Shown one piece after another: positions 25,106-47,875 of a DNA stretch of 64,000 bases. A program made the position numbers and the translations under genes. The DNA comes from a virus. Positions within the stretch are counted from its first letter, which is position 1. Each line of letters starts with the position of its first letter. Below the pieces are notes generated by a model that saw only the letters and a list, made by a program, of their open reading frames with translations, was not told the origin of the DNA and ran no database searches. The stretch is taken from the IMG/VR virus record IMGVR_UViG_3300027872_000001, one strand, 5' to 3'.

Positions 25106-25301
25106 GCTCCTTCAGCTCTTTCTCCTCCTTCTCGATCCGCTTCCTGGTTTCCAGGCTGGCCTTGTGCTCTCTCTCTGCTCTGTGGACACCCCGGCCGCAG
25201 GGACCGCAAATCGCGTCGATCTCCATATCCTCTTTGATCGCAGCTTCTTCGCAGTTGCACTCGCTACACTCACATTTCCAAATCGGGCCTGGGTTGGTCA
25301 T
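25095..25301 (-). CDS. small Cys-rich protein
   Basis: 68 aa. CECSECNC...CGPCG. SD TTAGGAGGATGA precedes the ATG. Confidence 0.6.
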   Translation of the reverse strand: MTNPGPIWKCECSECNCEEAAIKEDMEIDAICGPCGRGVHRAEREHKASLETRKRIEKEEKELKERDD

Positions 25302-25325
25302 TCATCCTCCTAAGGTGGCTCCACA

Positions 25326-25391
25326 CTAACATTCCCTCTGGCGGCGATCACGAGCTAACATTCCCGCAAAGAGCTCCCCACTAACACTCCC
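25326..25391 (-). promoter_or_regulatory. tandem array of 3 motif copies
   Basis: Exact copies at 25326, 25355 and 25381, spaced 29 and 26 nt. The 25381 copy gives the GEC* stop. 24 nt to the ATG at 25301. Confidence 0.7.
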
Positions 25392-25596
25392 CCTCCTTCC
25401 AGTTGATCCCCTTCATTTCCTCAAGCTGGCGGATCTTGGTGTCGTCACGCTTGATCCGCTCGAGAAGGCTCTGGATCTCCTGCAACATGGCCCCCTGAGA
25501 GGCTGAGGGCTTCAACTTCCATCCCCGCTCGACCTTCAATTCCATCTTGGCTACTTCCATGTTGTCCGCTGGCTTCGGTAACTTCGGCCGTTTCAT
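25381..25596 (-). CDS. hypothetical protein
   Basis: ORF track, 71 aa. SD GGGAGACACT precedes the ATG. Confidence 0.5.
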   Translation of the reverse strand: MKRPKLPKPADNMEVAKMELKVERGWKLKPSASQGAMLQEIQSLLERIKRDDTKIRQLEEMKGINWKEGEC

Positions 25597-25717
25597 AGTG
25601 TCTCCCGATGATGTAACCGACGACTCCCGCAGCGGCCATCATGCACAGCTGCGCAATCACGAAAAAAACCAAAGCCATGAACCCCGGGGCCTCCATAAAC
25701 AGTTCGATGGTAGCCAT
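25445..25717 (-). CDS. membrane protein (C-terminal extent uncertain)
   Basis: The N-terminus has TM segments FMALVFFVIAQLCMMAAAGVVGYII. Overlaps 25381..25596 out of frame. Confidence 0.4.
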   Translation of the reverse strand: MATIELFMEAPGFMALVFFVIAQLCMMAAAGVVGYIIGRHYETAEVTEASGQHGSSQDGIEGRAGMEVEALSLSGGHVAGDPEPSRADQA

Positions 25718-25764
25718 AAAGTAGTGTGATCTACCCTTGCTTACCTCCTCAGATTACTTACAAA

Positions 25765-25775
25765 CTAACATTCCC
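25765..25775 (-). promoter_or_regulatory. GGGGARTGTTAG motif copy
   Basis: Plus strand ctaacattccc, immediately after the stop of 25776..26048. Confidence 0.65.
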
Positions 25776-26048
25776 TTACGGTGCTGGACCCACTTCGGTC
25801 TCCAAAGCCACTTCTTCTTCCTCAATTATTTCGGTTTCAATCTCCCGAGAAAAGGTTTCCAGTTGAGGCAGCACGACTGAATTAAGGAAGCCCCAAATCT
25901 GTTCGGAGTGCATGAGATCGCCGTGGGCCTTCATGTTGATCTCCAGTCGGCCGAGGAAAGCGGTATCCTCTCCTTGGCGCAGCACGGTCCCATCGTCGTA
26001 CCTCGCATCAATAACCCCCCTGTCCATGACGATCACGATTTTTTTCAT
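25776..26048 (-). CDS. hypothetical protein
   Basis: ORF track, 90 aa. SD GAGGAAGGAACT precedes the ATG. Confidence 0.6.
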   Translation of the reverse strand: MKKIVIVMDRGVIDARYDDGTVLRQGEDTAFLGRLEINMKAHGDLMHSEQIWGFLNSVVLPQLETFSREIETEIIEEEEVALETEVGPAP

Positions 26049-26088
26049 AGTTCCTTCCTCGATTTTGGGCCTCTTGGAGAACCTTCTG

Positions 26089-26176
26089 CTAACACTCCCA
26101 ACCGGGCATGATGCCCTAACACTCCCCGTAGCTTCAATCTAACATTCCCCGATTCAAAATCAGTTCTAACCTTCCC
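26089..26176 (-). promoter_or_regulatory. tandem array of 4 motif copies
   Basis: Copies at 26089, 26116 and 26139 (exact) and 26166 (ctaaccttccc, stop of 26166..26465), spaced 27, 23 and 27 nt. Confidence 0.7.
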
Positions 26177-26465
26177 CTTCGGTCCTCTGCTCCCAGAGTT
26201 CCATGATGGTCACCTTGCCGTTGCACTGTTCCTTCAGTCCCTCAATAAATGTGGCGTAGCCAGCGTGACCATCAGCTTCGTACTTCTCTATACCCTCGTT
26301 CCACTCCTGGAGGGTCATCTGATAACCCACGGACCCACACTCCGGACAGCAGGGGATACCGTGACTGATTTCCTCACCCTCAACTGGTTCTGTGGCCGAC
26401 AGTTTCTCCCACTCGTCGGTCCAGTAGGTGCAGAATCCATACCAAATCTCTTGTTCGTCATTCAT
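26166..26465 (-). CDS. hypothetical zinc-ribbon protein
   Basis: ORF track, 99 aa. CCPECG. Confidence 0.6.
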   Translation of the reverse strand: MNDEQEIWYGFCTYWTDEWEKLSATEPVEGEEISHGIPCCPECGSVGYQMTLQEWNEGIEKYEADGHAGYATFIEGLKEQCNGKVTIMELWEQRTEGEG

Positions 26466-26695
26466 ACTTCTTCTCCTCGTTGTCTGAGTTGTTGCCTCAG
26501 CTCTTGTTCGATCGAACAGGCTTCGTCGATCAGTTTGTTTAGATGGGCCATCCCTTTTTCCATGTGTTCAGCGAGGATGGCAGCGTCCAGGGTTTCAAGG
26601 TGACCATATTGAAAGCCCTCCTGCATCCCCTCAGAGTAGCCCTTGATCTGGGACAGTTTCGACATGAGTTGGAGCAATGATTGGGGTACGCTCAT
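26462..26695 (-). CDS. hypothetical protein
   Basis: ORF 26462..26917 trimmed to the ATG at 26695 (ATGA overlap with the small peptide gene). Confidence 0.5.
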   Translation of the reverse strand: MSVPQSLLQLMSKLSQIKGYSEGMQEGFQYGHLETLDAAILAEHMEKGMAHLNKLIDEACSIEQELRQQLRQRGEEV

Positions 26696-26787
26696 ATCAA
26701 TCCAAACCCCTTGAGAAAGAGTCCCAGGATGATTGTCCCCAAGACAGACAGTAGGATGAGATGGAACCAAATCCCCGTCCAAGTCAT
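26692..26787 (-). CDS. small hydrophobic peptide (31 aa)
   Basis: MTWTGIWFHLILLSVLGTIILGLFLKGFGLI, with ATGA overlaps at both ends. Below the ORF-track cutoff. Confidence 0.4.
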   Translation of the reverse strand: MTWTGIWFHLILLSVLGTIILGLFLKGFGLI

Positions 26788-27137
26788 AGCTTCTCCCTCT
26801 CCTTCTCCTCGATCTCAAGGATATCGAAAAAGGCCTTCTCCCATTCCGTGAAGCGTAAGGCCCGATCATCCAGGTAGACGTGCGCTGGTGGTTTCCCTCC
26901 GCTGTAGAAGCGGTCATAAGGGATATCGTGCTCCTTGAGCCACTTCGTAGCTTCTGCCTTCAGCTCCTTGTCGTTGCCGCGAGTGGTGAAGATAATGATC
27001 CTGTGGCCTAGCTCCTTCAGCTTCTTCATGGCATCTTGGCATCCAGGCATGGGTGGGTCGTATATCGTCCCATCGTGCCAACCCTTCGAGTACCTGTGAA
27101 TCACTCCATCGAAATCAACCGCGATCTTCAGCTTCAT
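26784..27137 (-). CDS. HAD-superfamily phosphatase / 5'(3')-nucleotidase-like
   Basis: MKLKIAVDFDGVIH gives the DxDG motif I, IIFTTR is motif II-like, and YLDDR is a late Asp motif. Confidence 0.6.
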   Translation of the reverse strand: MKLKIAVDFDGVIHRYSKGWHDGTIYDPPMPGCQDAMKKLKELGHRIIIFTTRGNDKELKAEATKWLKEHDIPYDRFYSGGKPPAHVYLDDRALRFTEWEKAFFDILEIEEKEREKL

Positions 27138-27186
27138 GGACTATCCTCCTCCTATATGTTTCACATGAAACACTCCACCACCTGGG

Positions 27187-27243
27187 GCTAACCATTCCCG
27201 TACAAACGTCTGTACTCCCTGTGGCGTGCGTTCTAACATTCCC
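27187..27243 (-). promoter_or_regulatory. two motif copies flanking a GTACAGACGTTTGTAC inverted repeat
   Basis: ctaaccattccc (27187, variant), gtacaaacgtctgtac (27200..27215), ctaacattccc (27233). A further 7-2-7 inverted repeat TGTTTCAcaTGAAACA lies at 27157..27172. Confidence 0.6.
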
Positions 27244-27247
27244 CCGG

Positions 27248-27652
27248 TCATGCAACCTTCCGCAGCAGCTTCACGCCCTGGACCGCCAGTGTTCCTGCAG
27301 GAGCCGTGATCCAGAATCCTCCGTCTTCCCACAGAGCAGCTCGTCGCAAGATCCCGGCACGGAGTTCCGCTGGATCGTCGGGCCATGTGAAGACCTCGAT
27401 CTGCTTCGACACTTGGCCCAGGTACTTGACCTCCTTGGCCGGCCCTTTGATCTCGCACTCCCAAATCTCCCGGCCTCCATGACTCCAGCCCTTCGCGTTG
27501 TGGAGATCGTTGAAGACGAGCAGCCCGATAGTCCCATTAATGGGATAGGCCCACTTCTTTTTGGGATATTTGACCTTGGCTCCCTTCGGAGGACAACAGG
27601 ACTCCAGGCTTAACCCGCTCTTTTGGACAACCTTGTAGTAGACATCACCCAT
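27248..27652 (-). CDS. hypothetical protein
   Basis: ORF 27248..27721 trimmed to the ATG at 27652 (MGDVYYKVV...). Confidence 0.55.
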   Translation of the reverse strand: MGDVYYKVVQKSGLSLESCCPPKGAKVKYPKKKWAYPINGTIGLLVFNDLHNAKGWSHGGREIWECEIKGPAKEVKYLGQVSKQIEVFTWPDDPAELRAGILRRAALWEDGGFWITAPAGTLAVQGVKLLRKVA

Positions 27653-28076
27653 TCCGGTCCTCCTTTTCTGCGAAGTCCTCCGGGTCAATACCCTGGTCAG
27701 CCAAGCTCGGATGGTCTTCATTTTCCTTCTCCCTCACATCGACTTCCCGGAGGTCCTCCAGGTTGACACCCAGGCCCGTCAGTTTCTCTTTCATTACCCT
27801 GATAAATTCGTCCTCATTGGCAGCGGATCCCGCAGCGAAACTTCCCTCGAAAGGAGTCATGCAACCCGCAGGGAAGCCATTGAACTCGACAAAGAGGCAA
27901 TACGGGGGAATCCCATCGACTGTCTCAGGGTGTCCGTTGATCTTGATGAACCACTGGTCGTCAACCTTGTGGGTCCAGACCTTGTTCCGGATGGGAGCCT
28001 CACCCAAGGCATCGGCCAATTTAGCGACCAAATAATAGAGTGTGCACAACTGACCTGATTCCTTCTGCTTCATCAT
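27645..28076 (-). CDS. hypothetical protein
   Basis: ORF 27645..28088 trimmed to the ATGATG at 28076 (ATGA overlap). Confidence 0.55.
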   Translation of the reverse strand: MMKQKESGQLCTLYYLVAKLADALGEAPIRNKVWTHKVDDQWFIKINGHPETVDGIPPYCLFVEFNGFPAGCMTPFEGSFAAGSAANEDEFIRVMKEKLTGLGVNLEDLREVDVREKENEDHPSLADQGIDPEDFAEKEDRNG

Positions 28077-28240
28077 TCCTCTTTCCAATAATCAGAATGT
28101 TCTCGCTTCAACTCCTTCAGCTCCTTGATCGTCTTGTCGACGGTCCCGGCCTCCATGTACTCATCACACATCATGACCCCCTGCCAGCAGCAAGCTCTCA
28201 GACAAGCATCGCAGACGGTTACTTTGCGGTCAGGATTCAT
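28073..28240 (-). CDS. small Cys-rich protein (55 aa)
   Basis: MNPDRKVTVCDACLRACCWQGVMMCDEY... Below the ORF-track cutoff, with coupled overlaps at both ends. Confidence 0.45.
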   Translation of the reverse strand: MNPDRKVTVCDACLRACCWQGVMMCDEYMEAGTVDKTIKELKELKREHSDYWKEE

Positions 28241-28601
28241 CGTCCCTCACCCAGAGCCTAGCGATCTCACAGAGGGCCACGAACACAGCATCCTTGTCCC
28301 GCTCCAACGTGCCGAGGTCGTCGTAAGGCACTAGATCAGGATGGATGCGCTTCTCAGCATCGTACTTCTCTCCATAAACCCACCCTCGGTCCAGGTAGGC
28401 TTGCATCCACCCTCCATGCAGCTCCTCCGGGGAAGAAGAACGGTTCGGCCCACACTGACGCTCGATCACCTTTAGAAATTGCTCCTTGAAATCCTCTTCC
28501 CGCTTATCCCAAGGCGCAGGAACGATTGGTGCCCGAGCAGCGTCAGCTGCCAACCGCGCACCTTCGTAAACAAACACAGCCCGTCGAGTGTTCAAGTCCA
28601 T
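28230..28601 (-). CDS. RyR-domain protein
   Basis: LHGGWMQAYLDRGWVYGEKYDAEKRIHPDLVPYDDLGTLERDKD matches the RyR-domain pattern (W..GW.YG...d...k.HP.LVPY.eL...eK.kD). Confidence 0.6.
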   Translation of the reverse strand: MDLNTRRAVFVYEGARLAADAARAPIVPAPWDKREEDFKEQFLKVIERQCGPNRSSSPEELHGGWMQAYLDRGWVYGEKYDAEKRIHPDLVPYDDLGTLERDKDAVFVALCEIARLWVRDDES

Positions 28602-28964
28602 TCAGTCCTCCTCCAGCATTTCGGTTACTTCAGTTGATTCTCCAGCCATCCTGCGAGTTTCAATCCAGCTGGCCCGGAGCCTCCGGAAGCCCCGCAGCAG
28701 GGTATCGACAGGACTCTCGCCAGTCTCCCCCCGGCCTATGTCGTGCTTAACGAACTTGATGACCTTCTCCAGCTCCCGGTTCGCCAGCACCAAGCGGTAC
28801 TCCGCGCACTCCGCAAGCGTGTGAGTCCACCCGCAGCGGCTACACTTGAAATTGCCGATCGCATCGAAGCTGATGATCTCCTCCTCTGTGTGCATGAGGT
28901 TTAGATTAGGCGGGATAAGAGCTCCTCTGCTTGTTTCCGGTTCATCGTCTGTAGTTTTGACCAT
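28602..28964 (-). CDS. hypothetical protein
   Basis: ORF track, 120 aa. Confidence 0.55.
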   Translation of the reverse strand: MVKTTDDEPETSRGALIPPNLNLMHTEEEIISFDAIGNFKCSRCGWTHTLAECAEYRLVLANRELEKVIKFVKHDIGRGETGESPVDTLLRGFRRLRASWIETRRMAGESTEVTEMLEED

Positions 28965-29051
28965 AAATGTCCCCCAAAATGTCCAAGTTAAGTTTAAGGA
29001 TAAGTTGAGTTAGAGGGAAAATGACCCACACCATGTCCTCTTTTTTTTCCG

Positions 29052-29447
29052 TTAAAATTCCACGTTCATTTCCACGTTCATTTCCGTTTCATTTACTTCC
29101 CACTTGGCAAGCAGATCGTCCTTTATCTGCCAAACAACAGCGTCCCTTCCGCTTCGGTTTGCCTTTCGTCGGCCACTATCAACCAACAAACCCATCAACA
29201 CCAGCTCTCTCCGTCGTGGCCGGTAAGTATTCTGTTGGGTGATGCGCCCAAGACTGTCGAACATTTGCTCATCGGTTGATCCTACGCTGCTGCAATTCTT
29301 GAAATACTCGAAAACCTCTCTCTGGATGGTTCCCACGTCCGGAAGGATCTTTTGGGCAGCGGCAATACTTGTGTCCACGTCCTCATGGGGGGGTTCCCCA
29401 TCGTACAAGTTGTAATCTCCGCTAAATAGATCACCTTGGTCAGTCAT
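29052..29447 (-). CDS. winged-helix DNA-binding protein (tentative)
   Basis: 131 aa. GDLF N-terminus, then ...REVFEYFKN...GSTDEQMFDSLG...YRPRRRELVLMGLLVDSGRRKANRSGRDAVVW, which is wHTH-like. The C-terminus is encoded by a 12-nt tandem repeat (EMNVEMNVEF). Confidence 0.5.
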   Translation of the reverse strand: MTDQGDLFSGDYNLYDGEPPHEDVDTSIAAAQKILPDVGTIQREVFEYFKNCSSVGSTDEQMFDSLGRITQQNTYRPRRRELVLMGLLVDSGRRKANRSGRDAVVWQIKDDLLAKWEVNETEMNVEMNVEF

Positions 29448-29477
29448 GATGCCGGTATTTTACTAACAGTCCTCTTT

Positions 29478-29573
29478 TCACATCATGGTTATATTGTCGA
29501 GATACCAGATCAGTCCACCCGCCACTAGACCCGCCAGAATGATAAAAGAGAGAATAAGAATCGTAACTTTCAT
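29478..29573 (-). CDS. small hydrophobic peptide (31 aa)
   Basis: MKVTILILSFIILAGLVAGGLIWYLDNITMM. ATGA overlap with the upstream small gene. Confidence 0.35.
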   Translation of the reverse strand: MKVTILILSFIILAGLVAGGLIWYLDNITMM

Positions 29574-29731
29574 TTCCGTTTCATCTCCTTCTCCCCCTCA
29601 GCTTTGCCCTTCTCCCAGGCATCCGTGTACTCCCGCTTGCTGAAGATGGTGAAGTGGCAGTTCTTTTCATTGGGTCCGTTCCTTCCTGCGTCCAATCCCA
29701 TCTGGTAGGCGTAGGTTTTCTTCAGGCTCAT
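29570..29731 (-). CDS. small hypothetical protein (53 aa)
   Basis: MSLKKTYAYQMGLDAGRNGPNEKNCHFTIFSKREYTDAWEKGKAEGEKEMKRK. ATGA overlaps at both ends. Confidence 0.4.
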   Translation of the reverse strand: MSLKKTYAYQMGLDAGRNGPNEKNCHFTIFSKREYTDAWEKGKAEGEKEMKRK

Positions 29732-29994
29732 TTCAGATGATGCTCCCTCTGGATCTCGTTAAGCTCATCGACCAGCTTGTCCACTTCTGGCGACCAGGGA
29801 AGGTGAACTTGCATGACTCCGCTGATCACTTTACCGTCCGGACTGCGAGACAGCTCCTTCCATACGACCTCGATATCGTCCATCGAGTACAACTCCTTGA
29901 CCTCCAGGGCCGCTTCGATCTTCTCAATCGGTAGAGCTGCCCCTGCCAGAATCACCAGCATACTGAGTGCTTGTCGTCGATCCATTCCATTCAT
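29728..29994 (-). CDS. small exported protein with twin-arginine-like signal
   Basis: MNGMDRRQALSMLVILAGAALP N-terminus. SD GGAGGGGACCAATC precedes the ATG. Confidence 0.6.
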   Translation of the reverse strand: MNGMDRRQALSMLVILAGAALPIEKIEAALEVKELYSMDDIEVVWKELSRSPDGKVISGVMQVHLPWSPEVDKLVDELNEIQREHHLK

Positions 29995-30007
29995 GATTGG
30001 TCCCCTC

Positions 30008-30069
30008 CTAACACTCCCACCTACAAGTTATATCTAACAGTCCACCAACACGTTATATCTAACATTCCT
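30008..30069 (-). promoter_or_regulatory. tandem array of 3 motif copies
   Basis: ctaacactccc (30008), ctaacagtcca (30034) and ctaacattcct (30059, KEC* stop). The latter two share the extended GTTATATCTAACA. Confidence 0.6.
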
Positions 30070-30565
30070 TCTCATAAAAGAGAGTCTCGACGATCTGCCA
30101 GATCTCGGACATATCCCCGTTCTTCCACCCTTCTTCGCTGTCGGCGTACCGTTCCGAGATCTCCTGGATCTCCTCCATGGCTGAACGAACCTTGGTCGGC
30201 TCTGATAGTACCGTCCTAACACTCCCCAAATAGAACTTACCCGGATTCAGGGCGAACCTGGCCTTGCTCCCCTTGTCGGTGCGCATCCTCGTCCCACCCA
30301 GGAGGCCGTAGTTGGTTTTGTCGGCGTAAAACAGGAGAGCCTCGACCATGATGGCGTTCGCTGTCTCCGAATCCTCGTTGACGGTCCCTCCCAGAGCCAG
30401 CTTCTCGTTGAGCGCGTCGATCTCGTTGGCGCAGCAAGCGGAGCAGAGGCCGTGACGCTGATAGTGACGGAAGTGGGAGTTTTTGGGTTCGATGAGGGTG
30501 GTGGGACAGTTTTTACATGTCGATGAGGGTGCTAACATTCCCTTCTTTTTCTTCTTGCGTTTCAT
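30059..30565 (-). CDS. hypothetical protein
   Basis: ORF track, 168 aa. The ATG lies 12 nt after the motif at 30578. An alternative start is the ATG inside the internal motif copy at 30532. A second internal copy is at 30216. Confidence 0.6.
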   Translation of the reverse strand: MKRKKKKKGMLAPSSTCKNCPTTLIEPKNSHFRHYQRHGLCSACCANEIDALNEKLALGGTVNEDSETANAIMVEALLFYADKTNYGLLGGTRMRTDKGSKARFALNPGKFYLGSVRTVLSEPTKVRSAMEEIQEISERYADSEEGWKNGDMSEIWQIVETLFYEKEC

Positions 30566-30577
30566 GGATTTGCCACT

Positions 30578-30588
30578 CTAACAATCCC
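30578..30588 (-). promoter_or_regulatory. motif variant GGGGATTGTTAG
   Basis: Plus strand ctaacaatccc. Supplies the GDC* stop, and lies 12 nt upstream of the ATG at 30565. Confidence 0.6.
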
Positions 30589-30817
30589 CTCCGGTGGGGA
30601 CACCTGGCGCCCGATCCGGATTGATACCAAGGAGAGCCTCGACTTCCTGGAAGTTCTCGATGAATGTGGGTCCGTCGTAGGTATGGCCGTGAATGTGATC
30701 CATGACGATAGCTCCCTCTACGGCCTTGCTGATTGCTTGGGCCTTGTCGTAGAGCCGCTTCAAGGCTTCCTCCAACCTCTTGATGCGCTGCTCGTCCCCC
30801 AGGAAGGTCTTGTGCAT
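30578..30817 (-). CDS. hypothetical protein
   Basis: ORF 30578..30856 (TTG start) trimmed to the ATG at 30817, after GGAGTCTTGGAT. Confidence 0.5.
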   Translation of the reverse strand: MHKTFLGDEQRIKRLEEALKRLYDKAQAISKAVEGAIVMDHIHGHTYDGPTFIENFQEVEALLGINPDRAPGVPTGGDC

Positions 30818-30831
30818 ATCCAAGACTCCAC

Positions 30832-31302
30832 TCACGCGACCTTCGGCCTCCAGCAATTAACTGTCAATGCTGCTCCTCCATCGGTCTTGATCACACCGTC
30901 TTGGCATCTGATCCAGAGACTATCCATAATGAACGTACTGCCATCAATAGGTGTCTGAAACAACAGGTCGTGCTCCCTCCGGGATTCCGCAAGGGGCCTC
31001 ACCGAGACTTTGCACCCCACCGTATCCAAACACGCTGCTGAGATGCCCTTGATATAGGTAAACCCTGGCAACTTCGCTTCTCCACCACTCTGAGGAAAGC
31101 GGAGAGTAAACATTTGAAAATCCTCGGCCCCAATGGTGTAGAGCTTGCTCTCTGAATCGGTAAAAGCGGAAGTAACGATCTTGTCGTAGTCCGGATCCGG
31201 AAGCTCCGGAAGCTCCGGGCCTGGGTGTACGTCTAACAGTCCCCCGGCAGTAGCTGAGACTACAACGCCGGCAGTTACCTTGAAAAACTCTCTACGTTCC
31301 AT
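30832..31302 (-). CDS. exported protein with twin-arginine-like signal
   Basis: ORF 30832..31461 trimmed to the ATG at 31302. N-terminus is MERREFFKVTAGVVVSATAGG. Confidence 0.6.
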   Translation of the reverse strand: MERREFFKVTAGVVVSATAGGLLDVHPGPELPELPDPDYDKIVTSAFTDSESKLYTIGAEDFQMFTLRFPQSGGEAKLPGFTYIKGISAACLDTVGCKVSVRPLAESRREHDLLFQTPIDGSTFIMDSLWIRCQDGVIKTDGGAALTVNCWRPKVA

Positions 31303-31516
31303 TGGGCCACTCCCTGTAAAGAAAAGTGTCGTGGGTAACCTGTCGCTCGTAGTGGAAGGTGTGTTCGTTGACCTTGACGCTCGCATACGGGTCAGGGTCG
31401 GGTGCCATTGCTCCTCGCTCCGGGGCTGCGAAGCGGATGGTGTGCAGCGGGTGTCCACCACCCTCTATCGGTATCACCTTATGAAAACCCTTCAGGTCCG
31501 TGAGGATAGCGAACAT
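31292..31516 (-). CDS. hypothetical protein
   Basis: ORF track, 74 aa. 1-nt overlap with the upstream gene. Confidence 0.5.
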   Translation of the reverse strand: MFAILTDLKGFHKVIPIEGGGHPLHTIRFAAPERGAMAPDPDPYASVKVNEHTFHYERQVTHDTFLYREWPNGT

Positions 31517-31719
31517 CAGACCTTCTCCCCTGGATTCAAGATCTGGACGTTGCTCATATAGAAGCCCCTCGGATGCTTCTCGATCAGTTCCTTCAGGAAC
31601 GACACATCAGCTTTGTTGAAGAGGACAGTAGCCATCTTGCGGCCACTGGAAGCCTTGTCCTTCTGCATCTTGATCTTCGCCATCAGAACAGATAATCCAG
31701 TACGTTCAAAACGAGCCAA
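31516..31719 (-). CDS. hypothetical protein (start uncertain)
   Basis: The ORF track start is TTG. Alternative ATGs are at 31683 and 31668. Confidence 0.4.
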   Translation of the reverse strand: MARFERTGLSVLMAKIKMQKDKASSGRKMATVLFNKADVSFLKELIEKHPRGFYMSNVQILNPGEKV

Positions 31720-31761
31720 ACGACGAAGACAAAGACGACCACCTGGACGCCTATTCTAATC

Positions 31762-31986
31762 CTAATGTCCATACCAAATGTCCCTGGCTAGACGCATGGA
31801 CATAGCTTCACGAGCAGCGACCATTTTAGCGTGGACGAGCTGGCTCATACCGATGCTCCTGGCCTTCATGATGAGGATGCGATCTCCCCAATAATCGCGT
31901 AGCCGTCGTCCTGGTATTCCTAACACTCCCTGCTTGGCAGCGACAATGGGCAACAGACTTGTGAGTAGAAACGATCTCCGATCCAT
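31762..31986 (-). CDS. small exported protein with twin-arginine-like signal
   Basis: MDRRSFLLTSLLPIVAA N-terminus. Contains an internal exact motif copy at 31920. Confidence 0.55.
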   Translation of the reverse strand: MDRRSFLLTSLLPIVAAKQGVLGIPGRRLRDYWGDRILIMKARSIGMSQLVHAKMVAAREAMSMRLARDIWYGH

Positions 31987-32016
31987 AGTCTCAGGCTCCA
32001 GCCAGGATGAATGAAC

Positions 32017-32104
32017 CTAACATTCCCGGGAGCGGTCTGGTGGGGCTAGAGTATCAGAGATCTTGAAGAAATTTAAGACAGAAAGGCGGTTAGCTAACAA
32101 TCCC
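32017..32104 (-). promoter_or_regulatory. two motif copies
   Basis: ctaacattccc (32017, 30 nt upstream of the ATG at 31986) and ctaacaatccc (32094). Confidence 0.65.
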
Positions 32105-40134: not shown

Positions 40135-40700
40135 TTCCTCTCCTTTACAGTGATGCTGGCTTCAAGCGCATACTCAGGCAGCTTGAAGGCGGTCCTGAAT
40201 GCCTGGGTCTTGGACGAGTAGGCTTCCGAGTACATGAGGATCTGTCCGTTGCCCCCGATCAGGTGGATCCTCCACTTCTTCGCCTTGTCTTTGAACAGTC
40301 CGATCCTGGGTGAGATGCGTGGGTGTTCCGTTTCTTCCTCGTTCTCCAAGTCCGGACACGCTGCCAGGACCTCTCTCGCACGGTTGGCAGCACGACGAGC
40401 GTTGGATCGGCTATGGCCCTCGCTGGTTAGAATGATTCTGCCATTGGGAGTGAGCAGATGAAACCGCCACTCCTCCCTCTTGTCAATGAACAGCTCGAAC
40501 CTGACCTTGCTGACCATAGCCCTGACCTTGGACTGTCCGATGTAGAAGTAAACCCCTACTTCATCCGTGTGCTGCCACTTCAGGCCAAGCTCGTCCAGGA
40601 TCTTCTTGTGACGGTCAGGGGGGATGGTGATCACTTCGGGTATCCCGGTCCCGAAGATGGTATGGACTGAGTTCTGAAGCTCCTCAAATTGTTTGAACAT
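40131..40700 (-). CDS. tandem YegP/DUF1508 domain protein
   Basis: Two repeats: EEWRFHLLTPNGRIILTSEGHSRSNARRAANRAREV and KKWRIHLIGGNGQILMYSEAYSSKTQAFRTAFKL. Confidence 0.65.
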   Translation of the reverse strand: MFKQFEELQNSVHTIFGTGIPEVITIPPDRHKKILDELGLKWQHTDEVGVYFYIGQSKVRAMVSKVRFELFIDKREEWRFHLLTPNGRIILTSEGHSRSNARRAANRAREVLAACPDLENEEETEHPRISPRIGLFKDKAKKWRIHLIGGNGQILMYSEAYSSKTQAFRTAFKLPEYALEASITVKERK

Positions 40701-41079
40701 GGATATCCTCTCTGCTGTAAGCGACCAGGACGTGCGTTCCGACCTCCTTCACTCCACTGGCCCGCGCTTTATCAAGCAAAGGTATCCTCTGTTGATCCAG
40801 TTTCATCTTTGCCTCTCTCTCATCGTTAGCCACGACTCCCACAAGAAACTCTCTGCGGTCGTTGCGGTCGTCTTCCCGGCCTGTCCACCAATGCCAATAG
40901 ATGGGTTGGCTGTAACCCCTGAGTCGTTCAATTACCTCGTCCTTGGTAGCCATGCGCTTCTTGTATGTCTTAGCTCCATGGTCCCGACCAAAACCCCATC
41001 CGATAGCACCACCCATGATGGCGACGACCAGCAAAACAAACGAGGCCTGTAACCAAGTCCACATTGATATCTCACCCAT
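40684..41079 (-). CDS. membrane-anchored hypothetical protein
   Basis: 131 aa. TM segment WLQASFVLLVVAIMGGAIGWGF. The start codon abuts the stop of the TnpB-like gene. Confidence 0.55.
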   Translation of the reverse strand: MGEISMWTWLQASFVLLVVAIMGGAIGWGFGRDHGAKTYKKRMATKDEVIERLRGYSQPIYWHWWTGREDDRNDRREFLVGVVANDEREAKMKLDQQRIPLLDKARASGVKEVGTHVLVAYSREDIHVQTI

Positions 41080-42389
41080 TATTGCTCTCCCCTCTGGCCT
41101 ACGGCCAACAGTCTATTCTTTAACCGTGACTCGATCATGTTCAATTCCTCCACCTTTCCCTTCAGGATCTTTCCCGGCTTGCGGGTGATCTTCCTTCGGC
41201 TCTTAGGCAACAGGTTCTTGAGCGCGTTCCACTCAGCCCAATGGGACCGGCCACACTTCTCGCACAGGACGGAATGAGAAGCGTTGACCACCTGGGTCTG
41301 GCCTCCGCAGCGGCAACAATTACGGGTGACTCCAACCTTGTAGTCATTGACCACCTTGAAGGGCAATCCTGCCAGGGCCATCTTGTATTGAAGCTCGTCC
41401 AGCAGCTTCGCAAAGCAGTAGTTGGCCATGCGATAGTTCTTGGCCTTCTCCGGAGGACTCTTGCCCTTGGTGAACTTGTCGCGCACACGATTGTGACGAC
41501 CTACGGTGATGGCAGGATTGGTTCCCTCAACAGCCACGAAGATCCAATCACAGACCTGGGCCGAGACTGTATGCGTGATCCAGGTAGCAAAACGGTTCTC
41601 TCTCTGCCCAATCTGCTTGATCTTCTGGAGCTTCTTCTTCTCTCCCAGGGCCTTGCGGAGATTCCTCCATTTCCTTTTCAAATTCCAGTAGCTCTGGCCT
41701 CGGACGGTGAGGTAGCGGTAGGAGTTGTCGGCGTACACCACCAGGACAGAGACCAGCTTCCGCTGGCCTGTGTGGATGGTCACCAGGGATTTCCCTACGC
41801 CCTTCTCCCGTTTCACAATCGGCAACCGGCAAGCGATCGCTGCATACCATTTGCTTTTTCTCCGGAAGATCTCAACCTCTCCGTGTTTGACCGCCTTCTC
41901 GAGTACGACCTTCTGTCTTTCACCGCAGCGGAACTCACAGTCAATGACCAGATCCTTGCGGAGTTGGATCCGCAGCCGGTACTCTCGTTTCATTTCATCA
42001 TCCACAGGCAGCACCGAGACAGCCCGATCACGCGCACAGACGCGAGGTCTCCCGTCAGTCACGGAGGGCAGACCCCTCTCTTTGCTTTTCCATAGGCCAA
42101 CATAGGATCTCCAGTTAGCGTTGATTTCCTGTGCAGCGGAGTCTTTCAGGTGGGAAGGGTAATCCTTCGGCATGGCGTGACGGGCCACGGAAGCGGTAGC
42201 AGACTCATCCTCGGCTTCTTTGGCAGCTAGGACAGCGCGGGTTCCTCGAACGAGACAATCTTTGTAGAGTTCACACCAGTAAAGAAGTTCAGCTTCGATC
42301 TCCGGAGTGACGAGGAGTTTGACTTTGGCGGCAACGGTCTGCTCGGTTTGGTCCTGTTTCACTACGGTTGTCCCTTCTAACAATCCCAC
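41079..42389 (-). CDS. tnpB: TnpB / Cas12-family (IS605 OrfB-like) protein with apparently substituted RuvC catalytic residues
   Basis: 436 aa. OrfB-like N-terminus VKLLVTPEIEAELLYWCELY and zinc ribbon CCRCGG...CEKCGR. The RuvC-I position reads VTIHTG (usually GIDxG), RuvC-II reads ITVGRH (usually hhhEDL), and RuvC-III reads AEWNALKNL (usually ADxNAAxNI). The GTG start lies 12 nt after a motif copy. Confidence 0.75.
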   Translation of the reverse strand: MGLLEGTTVVKQDQTEQTVAAKVKLLVTPEIEAELLYWCELYKDCLVRGTRAVLAAKEAEDESATASVARHAMPKDYPSHLKDSAAQEINANWRSYVGLWKSKERGLPSVTDGRPRVCARDRAVSVLPVDDEMKREYRLRIQLRKDLVIDCEFRCGERQKVVLEKAVKHGEVEIFRRKSKWYAAIACRLPIVKREKGVGKSLVTIHTGQRKLVSVLVVYADNSYRYLTVRGQSYWNLKRKWRNLRKALGEKKKLQKIKQIGQRENRFATWITHTVSAQVCDWIFVAVEGTNPAITVGRHNRVRDKFTKGKSPPEKAKNYRMANYCFAKLLDELQYKMALAGLPFKVVNDYKVGVTRNCCRCGGQTQVVNASHSVLCEKCGRSHWAEWNALKNLLPKSRRKITRKPGKILKGKVEELNMIESRLKNRLLAVGQRGEQ

Positions 42390-42412
42390 GATTAATGAGA
42401 CCTAACATTCCC
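42377..42412 (-). promoter_or_regulatory. two motif copies at the TnpB-like gene start
   Basis: ctaacattccc (42402, 12 nt upstream of the GTG at 42389) and ctaacaatccc (42377, codons 2-5). Confidence 0.65.
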
Positions 42413-42528
42413 CTAAAAAGGGGATGGGGAGTGTGTGGCCCGACCTTTTGGGTCTACCACCCTCCCCATCGTGCGCTGTGTTAGGCAGCGCGGACGGTTA
42501 GCGAACTTGAGCGCACACCGCCTCACTA
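42413..42528 (-). other. GC-rich structured spacer between tRNA-Met and the TnpB-like gene (candidate terminator or ncRNA)
   Basis: Extended hairpin GGGGAG..GACC-TTTTG-GGTC..CTCCCC (plus 42426..42467). A second stem pairs GTGCGC (42471) with GCGCAC (42511), with an inner CGCTG-tgttagg-CAGCG. CCCCTAAAAAGGGG lies next to the motif. Confidence 0.4.
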
Positions 42529-42605
42529 TGGTAGCGGGGGAGGGATTCGAACCCCCGACCTCAAGGTTATGAGCCTTGCGAGCTACCGGACTGCTCTACC
42601 CCGCG
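42529..42605 (-). tRNA. tRNA-Met (anticodon CAT), initiator-like
   Basis: 77-nt cloverleaf on the minus strand: CGCGGGG-TA-GAGC-AGTCCGGTA-GCTC-G-CAAGG-CTCATAA-CCTTG-AGGTC-GGGGG-TTCGAAT-CCCTC-CCCCGCT-A-CCA. The C1xU72 mismatch and A11:U24 are initiator-like. CCA is encoded. Confidence 0.85.
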
Positions 42606-44659: not shown

Positions 44660-44680
44660 TTCCCTATCCTTTCTTTTCGT

Positions 44681-44692
44681 CCTAACAATTCC
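44681..44692 (-). promoter_or_regulatory. motif variant GGGGAATTGTTAG
   Basis: Plus strand ctaacaattccc, 21 nt upstream of the ATG at 44659. Confidence 0.6.
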
Positions 44693-44737
44693 CCTGGGGA
44701 GTTATTCCCCATTAAAGAATTTTAACATAGAACCCTG

Positions 44738-44986
44738 TCAAAACCCGCTCAGATCTTCTCCCTTCATCACGGCAATCAGGCGTTCATACCTCTTGGTCAG
44801 GCTCTTGTCACCCATAGCTTCGACCAAAGGTCGCATATGCTCTGCCTCCGTGACGCTCTTGAGGAAATCCTTCTCAACATGCCTGAAATAGATCCACAGA
44901 CACTTGGTACAGCCTGAACGAAACCCCTTGGGCGGTCCTTCTGCGGGGAAATAGAGGGGATGGGTCTCGCAGTAGCCCTCTGTCAT
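44738..44986 (-). CDS. hypothetical protein
   Basis: ORF track, 82 aa. ATGA overlap. Confidence 0.55.
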   Translation of the reverse strand: MTEGYCETHPLYFPAEGPPKGFRSGCTKCLWIYFRHVEKDFLKSVTEAEHMRPLVEAMGDKSLTKRYERLIAVMKGEDLSGF

Positions 44987-45561
44987 ATGAGACTTGCTGC
45001 TTCCAGGGCTGCTCGTTGATAGACGGTGACGTGGTCAGCGTTGGGATCCTCGATGGCTTCACCTATCTTGGTGAGCACCAGGGCATCGGCCAGGTCGTCG
45101 GAGTCCAGGTCGATCTTCCACCGCTTGAGGACCTCCTTGGGAATCATACTCTTGCTCCCGGGACTACCCACGAAACGCTTCAAGGTGGTGGGTGAGACAA
45201 GAATGTAAGGCACGTCCATATCATTGAGGGTAAACCTTACGATTCCCCCGATCTCACAGAGGATGGACTTGCCGCGGCCTATGGCTCCAAAAGCGTAGTC
45301 CTCCAGGATTACTTCGTCGGCGTGGTCAGCGAAGAACCTTACCCTTTCAACGATGTGATTCCATTTCTCTTCTCTTGATGGTCCAGGTTTCTTTTTCGTC
45401 GGCCGAGGGAAATCAATGAGGAAAAAAGAGTAGCCTTTCTTATTCAGAACGCCTGGGTGAGACACGCTATCTATAGTGCCGGCGAATTGTTGCAGAGCAT
45501 CAGTGCGTATGCACAGCCCTGTGGAGTTGAGCGACAGGTCAATACCTAAGATGCTTTTCAC
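44983..45561 (-). CDS. RuvC-like Holliday junction resolvase
   Basis: MKSILGIDLSLNSTGLCI carries the first catalytic Asp, VILEDYAFGA the Glu, followed by ...KRFVGSPGSKSM...DDLADAL. Confidence 0.7.
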   Translation of the reverse strand: MKSILGIDLSLNSTGLCIRTDALQQFAGTIDSVSHPGVLNKKGYSFFLIDFPRPTKKKPGPSREEKWNHIVERVRFFADHADEVILEDYAFGAIGRGKSILCEIGGIVRFTLNDMDVPYILVSPTTLKRFVGSPGSKSMIPKEVLKRWKIDLDSDDLADALVLTKIGEAIEDPNADHVTVYQRAALEAASLI

Positions 45562-45964
45562 TGTCCATCACCTTTCTGAAGGGTCCGTAGAGATCGTCCG
45601 ACACCTTGAGCAGACGCTCAAAGATTCGTCTTACTGGCTTCTCCTTGATCCGTTTCTTGGGTCTGCAACCGAAAGGACAGTGCATCCTCTCGTCTTTGGT
45701 AGCACCGTACAGCTGGCAGAGGATCGGCCTGACCTCATGGATCGAGCAGAGCCCCTCCTTTAAGTAGGGACAGGTGAGAGAGTCCAGGTCCGTGGCTAAC
45801 AGTTCCCCCCGGTCCCGCTGCTGGAGCCAGTCCACGATGACGATCTGTTCCGCTTCGCTCCAGAAGACAGGACCGCAGGCTTCCTGGCACTTCTGCTTGC
45901 AATGGAAGTTCGGGATCTTCCTGGAGACCTGAGCGTAGAGATCCTTGGCGTCCCTGAGATTCAT
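45539..45964 (-). CDS. YkgJ/CxxCxxCC-type Fe-S/zinc cluster protein
   Basis: ORF 45539..46021 trimmed to the ATG at 45964 (ATGA overlap). CKQKCQEACG...CPYL..GLCSIHEVRPILCQ. Confidence 0.55.
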   Translation of the reverse strand: MNLRDAKDLYAQVSRKIPNFHCKQKCQEACGPVFWSEAEQIVIVDWLQQRDRGELLATDLDSLTCPYLKEGLCSIHEVRPILCQLYGATKDERMHCPFGCRPKKRIKEKPVRRIFERLLKVSDDLYGPFRKVMDSEKHLRY

Positions 45965-47826
45965 AGCTGTGTAACGCTGGAGACTCCTTCCTCGTTCTTC
46001 ACCATATAGAACTTGGCCCACTTCACCGGGGGCTTCTTGAACTCCTCGTCAGGGATCATGAGGCTCCAGAAGACGAAGCTCTGATCCAGCTTCGCTTCCT
46101 TGATCATATCTAGCATGACCATCCTAAAGGGTGGGGTCAGAAGCTCGGCGTTGTCCACACAGATGAAGTTGAATTTTGACCACTTCGCCAGGGCGATCTG
46201 TAGAGCCACACCCAAACGAAATCGTTCCGACCTGGACAAGCTGGCTACGGGTCGTGTCCTGGCCTTGATCAGCCAGGGGTCCACTTGGATATCTAGCTCA
46301 AAGCCGAACCGCTTCAGGGGTCCGTTGACCGCATCTTGGAAGGCGGTAACCTTGTCGTGGATCAACTGCAACCGTACCCCCTTGGGCCCGAAGAAATCGA
46401 CCAGAGATTCCAGGTGTCCGGACTTGATCTCCAGCTCCTTCATTTTCTCGGCTACTTGCTCGACCAGGTCCCGGCGCAGTTTCCATTGCTTCGCTTTTTC
46501 CAGGACACTCCGACCTACCTTGATTCTCTCCGCAAGTTCAGCCTTCCACTTCTCCAGCTTGACCACTTCCGGGTTCTCCGTGGTATCTTCCTGGGCCTCC
46601 AGCTCCTTCAGCTTTTCTTCCAGTTCTTTCAGCTTCTCCTTATTGCTGTTGTAACTCTTGGTCGTTTTCCGGAAGACTTCAGCCTCTGCTTCGACTTGAG
46701 AGGGAGAAGTGTAGTCAGCCTCTAGCTTCTCCATTTTCTCCTTGAGGTCATGGGCTTCCCCCTGGCGCGTTCTCTCCAGGTCTGTCTGTTCCACCACACC
46801 GGCCTGGATCTGCTTTACCTGGGCAGGGCATTTGAATGTGGCGCCAATGCAAGACCCGTCGAAGTGCTCCAAGAGAACCTTGGCCTGGGAGTGCTGTGTC
46901 ATGTGGGCTAGGGCGTAGGTGCGCTTGCGCTCCAGCTCGTCGTACTTCTTCTTGTGTGCTGCCTCATCCTTCTTTGCCTTGTTCAACTTGGCGGTCAGTG
47001 CCTTGGCTGCTTCTTTGGTGGGCTTCTGGAAGTTCTCGAACCAGTTGTTCAGGATGGTTATCTCACCCTGCAGCCGTTCGATTGCGTTGCGCTGAAACCC
47101 CTTGCCGTGTCCAATCAGCTCTGCTGTCTCTGCAATCGCTTTCTTCTCCTGATCCTCAATACCCCGCAGCTGTGCCTCGATCTTGTCGATGGGTGGTTCA
47201 TCACCCTCCGGAGGATCTGGGGCCTTGGTCTGCTTGATCTCCCGGTTCACATCGGTGCGTTCCCGGTACACCTTTTCGTAGGCAGCGTCCAGGACCGGGA
47301 TAGAATTGAACTTCAAGCCACTGACGAACTCTAGCGCAGCGGGATCCCCGTCGAACTTCTCGAGGATCGCTTCATGTTTGACCTCAACCCCAATGATATT
47401 CAGGATCGCTTCCTTCTGCGCCTTGGAATCCCACAGAAAGAAGTCCGTCGTGTTGAGGCACGCCGATATGATCTCCGGACGAAAGGGAAGCTCGACGGTC
47501 TCGCAGGACTCACCCTTTTCGTTGATCCATTCGATGTAACGATTTGTCAGGGCAACACCCCGCTCGGCTATGCCCCAATCCGTTTGCACTCGGACTACAA
47601 ATCTCTTGGCTTCGTCCAGGTCGTGAATCAGATCCCTCACGTTGTCGTTGCGCTTGCGATAGCTCTCGCACTGACCGACCAGGGCGAACTCGACGGCCTT
47701 CTTTATTGAAGACTTGCCGGCGTTCAACGCACCGAGGAACAAGTGTATTTTGGGAGTCTTCTTGAACTCCAAGAAGGTGCTCTTATGACTGGTGAAATTG
47801 TCCAACTTCAAGCTATTGATCTGCAT
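45961..47826 (-). CDS. Rad50/SbcC-like SMC-family ATPase
   Basis: N-terminal LKLDNFTSHKST...FLGALNAGKSSIKKAVEFAL (Walker A), a long coiled-coil middle, LSRSERFRL (signature-like) and FICVDNAELL (Walker B). Confidence 0.8.
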   Translation of the reverse strand: MQINSLKLDNFTSHKSTFLEFKKTPKIHLFLGALNAGKSSIKKAVEFALVGQCESYRKRNDNVRDLIHDLDEAKRFVVRVQTDWGIAERGVALTNRYIEWINEKGESCETVELPFRPEIISACLNTTDFFLWDSKAQKEAILNIIGVEVKHEAILEKFDGDPAALEFVSGLKFNSIPVLDAAYEKVYRERTDVNREIKQTKAPDPPEGDEPPIDKIEAQLRGIEDQEKKAIAETAELIGHGKGFQRNAIERLQGEITILNNWFENFQKPTKEAAKALTAKLNKAKKDEAAHKKKYDELERKRTYALAHMTQHSQAKVLLEHFDGSCIGATFKCPAQVKQIQAGVVEQTDLERTRQGEAHDLKEKMEKLEADYTSPSQVEAEAEVFRKTTKSYNSNKEKLKELEEKLKELEAQEDTTENPEVVKLEKWKAELAERIKVGRSVLEKAKQWKLRRDLVEQVAEKMKELEIKSGHLESLVDFFGPKGVRLQLIHDKVTAFQDAVNGPLKRFGFELDIQVDPWLIKARTRPVASLSRSERFRLGVALQIALAKWSKFNFICVDNAELLTPPFRMVMLDMIKEAKLDQSFVFWSLMIPDEEFKKPPVKWAKFYMVKNEEGVSSVTQL

Positions 47827-47864
47827 GGTTTTATCTTTCTATCTCCTGGTTTTAGTGTGAAGTC

Positions 47865-47875
47865 CTAACATTCCC
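47865..47875 (-). promoter_or_regulatory. GGGGARTGTTAG motif copy (rightmost in the window)
   Basis: Plus strand ctaacattccc, 38 nt upstream of the ATG at 47826, with SD CAGGAGATAG in between. Confidence 0.7.

Follow-up and report, generated by a model that had tools for sequence, protein, structure and literature searches.

A TnpB/Cas12f-like phage protein with an apparently re-tooled RuvC pocket, and an upstream structured RNA that may read a motif repeated in the same genome

We have found that the virus of IMG/VR record IMGVR_UViG_3300027872_000001 encodes, on the minus strand of the 64-kb stretch of DNA analysed here (the window), a protein of predicted TnpB/Cas12f fold that appears to have been domesticated outside any transposon and whose RuvC pocket looks to have been re-tooled. 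Just upstream of its gene lies a conserved structured RNA of about 114 nt, one hairpin loop of which is complementary to a short oriented motif present in about 40 copies in the phage's own DNA, and the loop changes together with the motif between lineages of related phages. We consider it possible, with a probability that falls a little short of even, that a TnpB-derived ribonucleoprotein (RNP) containing this RNA of about 115 nt reads the motif and thereby acts as an RNA-guided regulator of a phage regulon.

Results

A predicted TnpB/Cas12f fold with a conserved, altered RuvC pocket

ORF calling returned the 436-aa open reading frame (ORF) that an earlier reading of this DNA, made from its letters without database searches (the sequence-only reading), had placed at 41079..42389, and located it on the minus strand; residue numbers below are those of this 436-aa version. 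The true start is probably GTG 42362, which would yield a protein of 427 aa, because the start of the relatives is without exception the equivalent of this codon and a 97%-identical relative lacks the upstream GTG.

41079..42362 (-), TnpB/Cas12f-fold protein (predicted), probable coding sequence (CDS) of 427 aa; the mechanical ORF reaches GTG 42389
H206-T-G, G297-x-H299, D349 and E386-W-N, pocket of the TnpB-like protein; C358/C361/C376/C379, its zinc ribbon

The sole Pfam domain detected is PF07282 (Cas12f1-like TNB domain; E 8e-8, above cutoff), while NCBIfam guided_TnpB matches at 60.6 bits, under its cutoff of 100, and a PHROGs family annotated as 'transposase' matches at E 1e-11. An AlphaFold2 model built from a 108-sequence alignment reached a mean predicted local distance difference score (pLDDT) of 90.2 and a predicted template-modelling score (pTM) of 0.86, and the best match of Foldseek against the PDB was AsCas12f, over the full length (E 1e-15, TM 0.61), with further full-length matches to other Cas12f proteins, dCas12f (9n9c), ISFba1 TnpB and ISDra2 TnpB. 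Profile comparison with Cas12f chains gave E 1e-50. The model has the WED-REC-RuvC-TNB order of the superfamily, with a C4 zinc ribbon (CxxC...CxxC) between RuvC-II and RuvC-III whose four cysteines, C358, C361, C376 and C379, are invariant in the clade. The TnpB/Cas12 layout with zinc ribbon that had been read by eye is thus borne out by the PF07282 and Foldseek matches and the four cysteines. On this modelling the protein is predicted to be a complete miniature TnpB/Cas12f-fold protein with an intact zinc ribbon.

We assigned the catalytic columns in the 108-sequence alignment, which includes 102 ordinary relatives, by anchoring it on D225/E324/D401 of AsCas12f; the D225A mutation of the 8dzj chain falls exactly in the 'GvDlG' column and so anchors RuvC-I. 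Within the clade of the query we distinguish three lineages: lineage A, the group of the window, with 80-100% identity; lineage B, P0013-like, with 27-34% identity to the query and 57-85% among its own members; and lineage C, represented by P0014, with about 32-37% identity to the query depending on the alignment. The query carries H206, G297 and E386 in the D/E/D columns. The by-eye assignment of H/G/E to the triad is therefore reproduced in the anchored alignment, and an intact D-E-D triad, a finding that would have contradicted the sequence-only reading, is absent from it, as is the D-E-D signature expected of an active nuclease.

RuvC-I column: D in 98 of 102 ordinary relatives; H in the clade
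RuvC-II column: E in 78 and G in 23 of 102 ordinary relatives; G in the clade
RuvC-II +2 column: L in 98 of 102 ordinary relatives; H in the clade
RuvC-III column: D in 101 of 102 ordinary relatives; E in the clade

The motifs H206-T-G, G297-x-H299 and E386-W-N are strictly invariant in 20 clade members that share 27-84% identity with the query. A column on strand beta5 holds Glu in all 23 ordinary relatives of the Gly type and Pro in 64 of the 78 of the Glu type; in the clade its acidic residue is D349 in lineage A, a Glu in P0014, and in lineage B an Asp one residue off (348/349). Gly-type RuvC-II with a compensating acidic residue is a rearrangement described by Altae-Tran et al. (PMC10691335), who also report that some rearranged TnpBs remain active, and the clade, with G297 plus an acidic beta5 residue, has the same RIIr-5-like arrangement. 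The alternative Glu in VAVEGT, which had been offered as compensating, is accordingly not the residue that matters; D349 on beta5 is.

In TldR proteins, TnpB derivatives that act as RNA-guided repressors, active sites deteriorate and the C-terminal zinc finger and RuvC parts are often lost (PMC10705468). The present clade has two or more altered DED positions (D-to-H, D-to-E and an inherited E-to-G) and a fixed, non-transposase phage context, as TldRs do, yet it keeps a full-length C-terminus and an invariant pocket and ribbon. The proposal that the protein is nuclease-dead in the manner of a TldR is hence not sustained by the strict conservation of H206, G297, H299, E386 and the acidic residue at 348/349. 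Because the pocket is invariant at 27-84% identity and the E-to-G change is compensated, we regard the site as remodelled and not as shown to be dead; from its alignment it looks re-tooled to His/His/Glu(+Asp), unlike the drifting sites of TldRs. Classical two-metal DNA cleavage is unlikely on these residues. A pocket that has been rebuilt and kept makes residual or new activity likely, that is, some other activity or metal site such as processing of the protein's own RNA; processing of its own RNA via RuvC is attributed to TnpB in work cited in PMC10705468.

An immobile gene in a rare clade

No TnpA, no flanking repeats and no second copy of the gene occur in the window, and lineage-A contigs with 80-84% protein identity share one gene order: ParB, a small Zn-finger ORF, tRNA, spacer, the gene, a 130-aa ORF, DUF1508 and a helicase. 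The hallmarks of a transposon (a transposase, left and right ends, mobile copies) are thus missing, as the sequence-only reading had said, and neither of the two things that would have spoken against it here, insertion-sequence (IS) ends and extra copies, was found in the window. Searches of 185,579 bacterial and archaeal genomes (GTDB) returned no relatives, and GenBank phages returned no DNA or protein relatives, the tRNA aside. IMG/VR contains one relative only, 97% identical. A HMMER scan of 1.84 billion representatives yielded three proteins at E < 1e-30 followed by nothing other than the general TnpB cloud, and word-indexed searches yielded the second, more diverse lineage. A search for related phages lacking the gene, by way of their helicase genes, matched contigs that were cut or too distant. 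The databases searched point to a rare, virus-only clade, and the comparison of loci supports domestication: a TnpB relative outside any transposon that has become fixed in one lineage of phages.

We also considered whether an omega RNA is embedded in the 3' end of the gene, as in ordinary TnpBs, and rejected this on a synonymous-site scan: divergence over the last 90 codons is 0.24-0.31, against a gene mean of 0.30, and this lack of suppression argues against a canonical embedded omega RNA. The next ORF starts at the stop codon, and the conserved RNA lies upstream.

A conserved structured RNA upstream of the gene

The spacer upstream of the gene holds the following elements.

42415..42528 (-), conserved structured RNA of ~114 nt with three hairpins, bounded by the tRNA 3' end and a U-run
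42493..42522 (-), hairpin 1; the AAGUUC of its loop does not vary within or between lineages A and B
42473..42491 (-), hairpin 2; 6-bp stem and 7-nt loop CCUAACA (42479-42485), complementary to the invariant motif half TGTTAG(G)
42423..42470 (-), hairpin 3, GAUGGGGAGGG...CACACUCCCCAUC; long, with bulges, its conservation recognisable in lineage C (contig L005)
42415..42422 (-), unpaired 3' tail, CCC + UUUUU, candidate 3' end of the RNA

The folding z-score of this RNA is -4.8. Across nine lineage-A loci it retains 93.5% nucleotide identity, compared with 85.4% in the CDS, where ~30% of conserved codons differ synonymously. Within lineage A, four base pairs show double-sided compensatory changes, no stem is broken, and slid-partner controls give zero. 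Across lineages, 17 of 34 pairs are compensatory and 98% of cells are paired, a result reached by 0 of 500 shuffles, on an alignment that had been fitted to the covariance model and whose pair counts are to be read with that caveat. Searched with the lineage-A covariance model, all lineage-B loci whose flank is long enough (L015, L033, L029 and L030/L032) yield a full-length homologue (E 2e-11, for L015, to 5e-7). In each case it lies upstream on the gene strand, next to the gene or separated from it by one or two others. The lineage-C contig L005 begins inside the RNA, and hairpin 3 can still be recognised there. Comparative analysis thus indicates that the spacer is a real structured RNA, which is conserved and accompanies the protein in each lineage.

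The covariance model, a kind of check that the sequence-only reading had suggested, thus points to a conserved RNA at 42415-42528, upstream of the gene and not at its 3' end. Its structured spacer of roughly 115 nt stands, with three hairpins instead of two; and of the two places it allowed for a guide RNA, overlapping the CDS or in the spacer, the spacer holds an RNA and the 3' end of the gene does not. Between 40.9 and 42.7 kb no Rfam family other than the tRNA passes its gathering threshold, and nothing credible appears at E <= 10. A degenerate scan of IMG/VR for the RNA pattern gave 11 chance matches, 0 of which were confirmed by the covariance model. Since a simple terminator scan does not call hairpin 3, the position of the RNA 3' end at the U-run stays putative.

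The tRNA-Met that precedes the RNA in the window is confined to lineage A and is not part of the conserved module, although in that lineage it offers a ready-made 5' processing site for the RNA. In one lineage-A contig a ~100-nt insertion (L001 2572-2671) separates the two, and the RNA therefore need not abut the tRNA. In lineage B we note that the RNA is separated from the TnpB-like gene by one gene, which encodes an RtcB RNA ligase in one contig (L029 8783-9979) and a Band_7/SPFH protein in two others (L030 9178-9987 and L015 3668-4891).

A repeated motif complementary to the RNA

The plus-strand word CTAACANTCC(C) reads GGGA-N-TGTTAG on the gene strand. GGGA-N-TGTTAG occurs in 38 copies in one orientation and 0 on the other strand, and 4 further copies carry a 2-nt spacer between the halves. 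The N is free, while the base before GGA is G in 35 of the 38 copies. On the sense strand TGTTAG ranks first of 4066 hexamers, with 43 occurrences against 7.6 expected; the other strand has 4. Copies sit 13-40 nt upstream of start codons.

19907..32103 (-), small-gene block; 30 of 39 motif copies, mostly intergenic, in clusters of 2-6 with 23-29-nt spacing
42402..42413 (-), motif copy GGGGAATGTTAG, 1 nt beyond the U-run of the RNA
42377..42387 (-), motif copy GGGATTGTTAG; the probable start, GTG 42362, follows 14 nt downstream
44678..47874 (-), single motif copies: 47865-47874 at an SMC-like gene, ~45801 at the resolvase operon and ~44687 at the ParB gene, the latter two being 2-nt-spacer variants

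The motif had been described as phage-wide, a description that needs narrowing: 30 of 39 copies fall within 19.9-32.1 kb, and the plus-strand module at 6.4-19.4 kb has 0. It had also been placed 12 nt before the GTG start, which holds for GTG 42389; relative to the probable start, 42362, the nearest copy (42377-42387) lies 14 nt upstream. Contig L003 has the motif at equivalent gene-upstream positions. Other lineages have other words. Lineage C has GGAGCATGTTAC, in 8-11 copies in L005, and lineage B has (TT)GGGA-N-CTTTG, in arrays of 3-14 co-oriented copies with a 26-nt period (<1 expected by chance) that extend from immediately behind the TnpB-like gene to 11-16 nt short of the following start codon, plus one extra copy directly 3' of the RNA. 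A copy lies 0-3 nt past the U-run in 12 of 13 loci (8/9 in lineage A, 4/4 in lineage B); in L002 the adjacent motif is absent with RNA and loop intact, and in L005 no motif follows the RNA. We tried and rejected a reading of the arrays as CRISPR-like, as their flanking 16-mers have no convincing second matches (~3 by chance, mostly local repeats).

In each lineage an RNA segment is complementary to the motif of that lineage.

Lineage A: hairpin-2 loop CCUAACA, complementary to TGTTAG(G)
Lineage B: the same loop on a fully compensated stem, UCAAAGU, complementary to ACTTTG
Lineage C: GUAACAUG in the remnant upstream of hairpin 3, complementary to CATGTTAC

The reverse complement of the loop ranks 4th among hexamers in the lineage-B contig L015, behind three overlapping words of the same motif, and 1st of 2494 in L005. 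When the whole RNA is shuffled, the complementarity has P = 0.026 in lineage A (7 nt) and P = 0.005 in lineage C (8 nt), and cross-lineage controls are weaker for both. The RNA 3' tail of lineages A and B in addition leaves a C-run unpaired, a potential pairing partner of the motif's GGG(G) half. Separate reading of two half-sites would accommodate the free N and the spacer of 1 or 2 nt better than one continuous duplex. A link between RNA and motif, which the sequence-only reading had set down as pure speculation, thus gains support from the complementarity of loop and motif and from the parallel change of the two between lineages. Two other candidate segments were discarded. The 3' arm of hairpin 3 (ACACUCCCC) occurs unchanged in L005, whose motif differs, and is for that reason better taken as scaffold; the hairpin-1 loop AAGUUC, considered as a partner of the lineage-B motif, recurs unaltered in lineage A, whose motif it does not match.

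Some further features of these loci deserve mention. In the lineage-C locus, L005 175-1350 is occupied by a canonical TnpB that has an intact RuvC-I Asp (VGVDLG) and is split over three frames; with the RNA remnant (1-80) on one side and the motif array (1370-1760) on the other, it is probably an IS insertion into the module. An ORF-free stretch of ~500 nt in the window (21045-21550), adjoining a 6-copy cluster of GGGA-N-TGTTAG, has 7 copies of the 10-nt word GGTGAAAGGT at 21016-21321, in tandem doublets and triplets with one inverted; because these units are iteron-like, the stretch may be a replication origin. A separate word, GGATAGGGA(A), occurs 9 times, on both strands (3385, 4788, 5998, 6257, 9043, 9330, 10413, 12132 and 44669), always 0-5 nt before an ATG start codon, and by this placement would be an unusually long, fixed translation-initiation element.

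Layout of the locus and neighbouring genes

42529..42605 (-), tRNA-Met (CAT), initiator-like; directly 5' of the structured RNA in lineage-A loci, absent from lineages B and C
40684..41079 (-), 131-aa ORF; its ATG overlaps the TnpB-like stop by 1 nt (TAATG)

Both neighbours agree with what had been read from the letters. The tRNA-Met has CGCGGGG at its 5' end and a 1-72 mismatch as in initiator tRNA, and a 139-nt spacer separates it from ORF 41079-42389; on the other side, the following ORF does begin at the stop codon. That 131-aa ORF has a predicted hydrophobic N-terminal segment, gave no family match, and is conserved in lineage A only. Just 5' of the tRNA-Met, at 42606-43037(-), the window encodes a 143-aa CxxCxGxG protein. 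In six lineage-B TnpB-like proteins (P0168, P0169 and P0172-P0175) an insertion of ~35 aa into the N-terminal helical region bears a CxxCGxG...CxxC zinc knuckle (alignment A9); a relationship between the two was considered and dropped, their pairwise similarity not being significant (E 0.38). A RuvC-like Holliday junction resolvase of 192 aa (44983-45561(-); phrog_159, E 4e-27) is encoded 2.6 kb upstream, so that the phage has a canonical RuvC enzyme in addition. Besides the tRNA-Met, the window has a tRNA-Glu (CTC) gene at 589-662(-), for which the Rfam score is modest (36.9 bits). Among 30 proteins of the window, which covers 64 kb of a genome at least 108 kb long, none was recognised as a sigma factor or RNA polymerase. 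We note that a 3171-aa ORF at 54442-63957(-) has a methyltransferase-like region (about residues 510-695) and, over residues 6-172, a weak local match to a family of virion RNA polymerases (E 1e-6).

Discussion

The arrangement described above suggests how the module might work. The domesticated TnpB-derived protein would form an RNP with the three-hairpin RNA encoded just upstream, which in lineage A could be freed from the 3' side of the tRNA-Met, and the RNP would recognise the oriented, bipartite GGGA-N-TGTTAG by pairing with short unpaired segments of the RNA. The main reader would be the hairpin-2 loop CCUAACA, and the C-run of the 3' tail may take the GGG half. Binding would set the expression of a regulon, including autoregulation of the protein's own gene; such control is the most likely role because the motif lies just upstream of the small-gene block, of replication and recombination operons and of the gene itself. 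Action would be on promoter-proximal DNA, either as repression of the TldR kind or as activation of the kind seen with dCas12f-sigmaE. With D-to-H in RuvC-I the canonical two-metal DNA-cutting site would be gone, and the rebuilt pocket might serve, for example, in processing of the RNA. Protein-RNA binding, binding of the RNP to the motif, DNA and not RNA as the target, and the regulatory outcome are all steps that we infer. The more specific proposal, in which a split 'guide' of 6+3-4 nt (internal loop and C-rich tail) replaces the 3' guide, recognition of promoters or operators is RNA-programmed and the pocket is re-tooled, we hold to be doubtful.

Several observations weigh against an RNA-guided regulator of this kind. 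The pairing is short, at 6-8 nt; in lineage B the 6-nt complementarity is not significant in the whole-RNA shuffle (P = 0.17), and ACTTTG is not enriched outside the local arrays in L029, L030 and L033. The covariation of loop and motif amounts to two to three lineage-level events, as the four lineage-B RNAs share one loop, and the loop assignment in L005 is partly circular because the RNA is cut by the contig end. Pairing of a C-run with a G-run carries little information. The evidence that protein and RNA bind one another consists of their co-occurrence, and a hairpin-loop guide is without precedent in the TnpB/Cas12 family, whose members use a 3' extension as guide. Another factor, such as a phage sigma factor or RNA polymerase encoded beyond the 64 kb of this genome of at least 108 kb, could read the motif, and a ParB-family protein is encoded next door. 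Lastly, with all copies on the sense strand, DNA and RNA targets cannot be told apart.

This last point leads to the idea that the RNA, alone or held by the protein, pairs with the motif in the 5' leaders of transcripts, the pocket being an RNase or the protein a chaperone, so that processing, decay or translation is controlled. The 38 copies and 4 spacer variants are all in the sense orientation and, at 13-40 nt before start codons, could lie in leaders; loop pairing of 6-7 nt is typical of RNA-RNA kissing or seed contacts; and an RtcB RNA ligase gene stands between RNA and gene in L029. Two invariant His and a Glu resemble acid-base RNase sites. The RuvC of TnpB processes its own RNA, according to work cited in PMC10705468. 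Nevertheless, tandem arrays of up to 14 sites with a 26-nt period look like DNA operators, the presence of the motif in mRNAs is an assumption, and we consider action at the RNA level unlikely. None of the characterised TnpB- or Cas12f-like relatives in this comparison is known to target RNA. It is also conceivable that the association of RNA and motif is a coincidence, in which an unrelated phage or host factor (a sigma factor, an RNA polymerase or the neighbouring ParB-family protein) reads the motif and the RNP targets the host genome or competing elements, or the RNA is a cis-acting leader. Many phages do own oriented promoter words, the motif occupies orthologous gene-upstream positions in the window and L003 as ordinary expression signals would, the complementary stretches are short with modest individual P values, and part of the genome lies outside the window. 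Chance would, on the other hand, have to account for the loop having as its reverse complement the top over-represented hexamer of the window and, with different words, doing the same in two other lineages, for arrays physically linked to the gene in lineage B, and for RNA, gene and motif occurring together in all three lineages; we find this rather unlikely.

A more conventional arrangement is that transcription reads through the U-run and the adjacent motif serves as a canonical 3' guide, forming R-loops at motif copies with a 5'-G as the target-adjacent motif (TAM) and a seed of ~11 nt. The motif does lie 0-3 nt past the U-run in 8/9 lineage-A and 4/4 lineage-B loci, G precedes GGA in 35 of 38 copies, and hairpin 3 is not called a terminator by the simple scan. 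There is a precedent in dCas12f, whose TAM is a 5'-G and which binds where 11 bp are complementary (PMC13472631). Against this, L002 keeps RNA and loop intact without an adjacent motif and L005 has no motif after the RNA, the free N and variable spacer are hard to square with a contiguous seed duplex, the complementarity of loop and motif goes unexplained unless it reflects an intramolecular pseudoknot, and a stable hairpin followed by a conserved U-run resembles a 3' end; on balance such a guide seems quite improbable. We give next to no credence to the idea of an ordinary, active IS200/IS605-type TnpB residing in a phage by chance. The fold and the zinc ribbon do match TnpB, and some rearranged TnpBs are active (PMC10691335), but the RuvC-I Asp-to-His and RuvC-III Asp-to-Glu changes are clade-wide, TnpA, end repeats and a second copy are lacking in the window, the syntenic position is kept at 80% protein identity, no RNA is embedded at the 3' end and GTDB genomes hold no copies.

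Exapted TnpB/Cas12f proteins, among them TldR, dCas12f-sigmaE, Cas12k and Cas12m, constitute a new and fast-growing class of natural RNA-guided regulators, and those characterised cases that serve for comparison here rely on a 3' guide and address, for the most part, one or a few host loci. If RNA-guided regulation by the present module is correct, several of its features would be novel: a virus-only clade; an RNA gene moved upstream, in one lineage behind a tRNA able to release the RNA; complementarity in a hairpin loop against a ~40-copy motif of the phage's own genome; and a nuclease pocket that has been rebuilt and conserved. The phage would then run part of its gene-expression programme through an RNA-programmed factor, and the compact scaffold (427 aa plus about 115 nt) would have a different mode of target reading, such that a swap of 6 nt in the loop is predicted to retarget binding.

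Comparison with known systems

The best structural match, Cas12f, works with a tracrRNA and a CRISPR array, and the present module is similar in having a separate structured RNA complementary to a short repeated unit and, in lineage B, repeated units arrayed beside the gene. Its unit is nevertheless only 11-12 nt, with 14-nt intervals and a 25-26-nt period; the intervals are shared by related phages and include the ribosome-binding sites of the next gene, and copies are dispersed upstream of many genes. Neither convincing spacer matches nor cas1 or cas2 were seen, as would be expected of a type V CRISPR-Cas system. The bridge (seek) RNAs of IS110/IS1111 elements recognise their targets by short split segments in loops and have no terminal guide. 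They offer an analogy in manner of working only, since they serve an unrelated protein family (DEDD recombinases) and there is no recombination context here.

TldRs (Wiegand et al., PMC10705468, PMC13622181) are likewise TnpB-derived proteins outside a transposon with two DED positions substituted, and they too are phage-encoded, with a dedicated noncoding RNA beside the gene and, as with the candidate targets here, sites just upstream of genes. Unlike TldRs, whose sites deteriorate and whose C-terminus or zinc finger is often lost, the present clade has an invariant pocket and an intact ribbon. The TldR guide RNA lies downstream and has a 9-16-nt 3' guide used with a TTTAA-type TAM, whereas the RNA here is upstream, ends in a U-run, carries its complementarity in a hairpin loop and has no evident 3' guide. 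TldRs target one host promoter, which they repress by obstructing RNA polymerase, in contrast to ~40 candidate sites in the phage's own genome, and the lineage is unrelated to the characterised fliC, oppF and csrA clades.

The dCas12f-sigmaE system (Hoffmann et al., PMC13472631) also has a miniature Cas12f/TnpB fold with an altered RuvC site (its structure, 9n9c, is among the Foldseek matches), a single structured RNA, multiple targets upstream of genes with autoregulatory sites at its own locus, and short effective complementarity (about 11 bp) with a preceding G. It differs in that its guide is a 14-16-nt 3' extension and that it is bacterial (Bacteroidetes) and chromosomal; linkage to an extracytoplasmic function (ECF) sigma factor gene (rpoE) is not seen here, no sigma domain occurring among the neighbours in the window and in the loci of lineages A, B and C. 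By sequence, the nearest ordinary relatives are the RIIr-5-type TnpBs (Altae-Tran et al., PMC10691335), which share the Gly at the RuvC-II Glu position and the acidic residue on beta5. They keep the Asp residues of RuvC-I and RuvC-III, are transposon-borne and have their omega RNA at the 3' end; the present clade adds to their arrangement the D-to-H, L-to-H and D-to-E changes, and is immobile.

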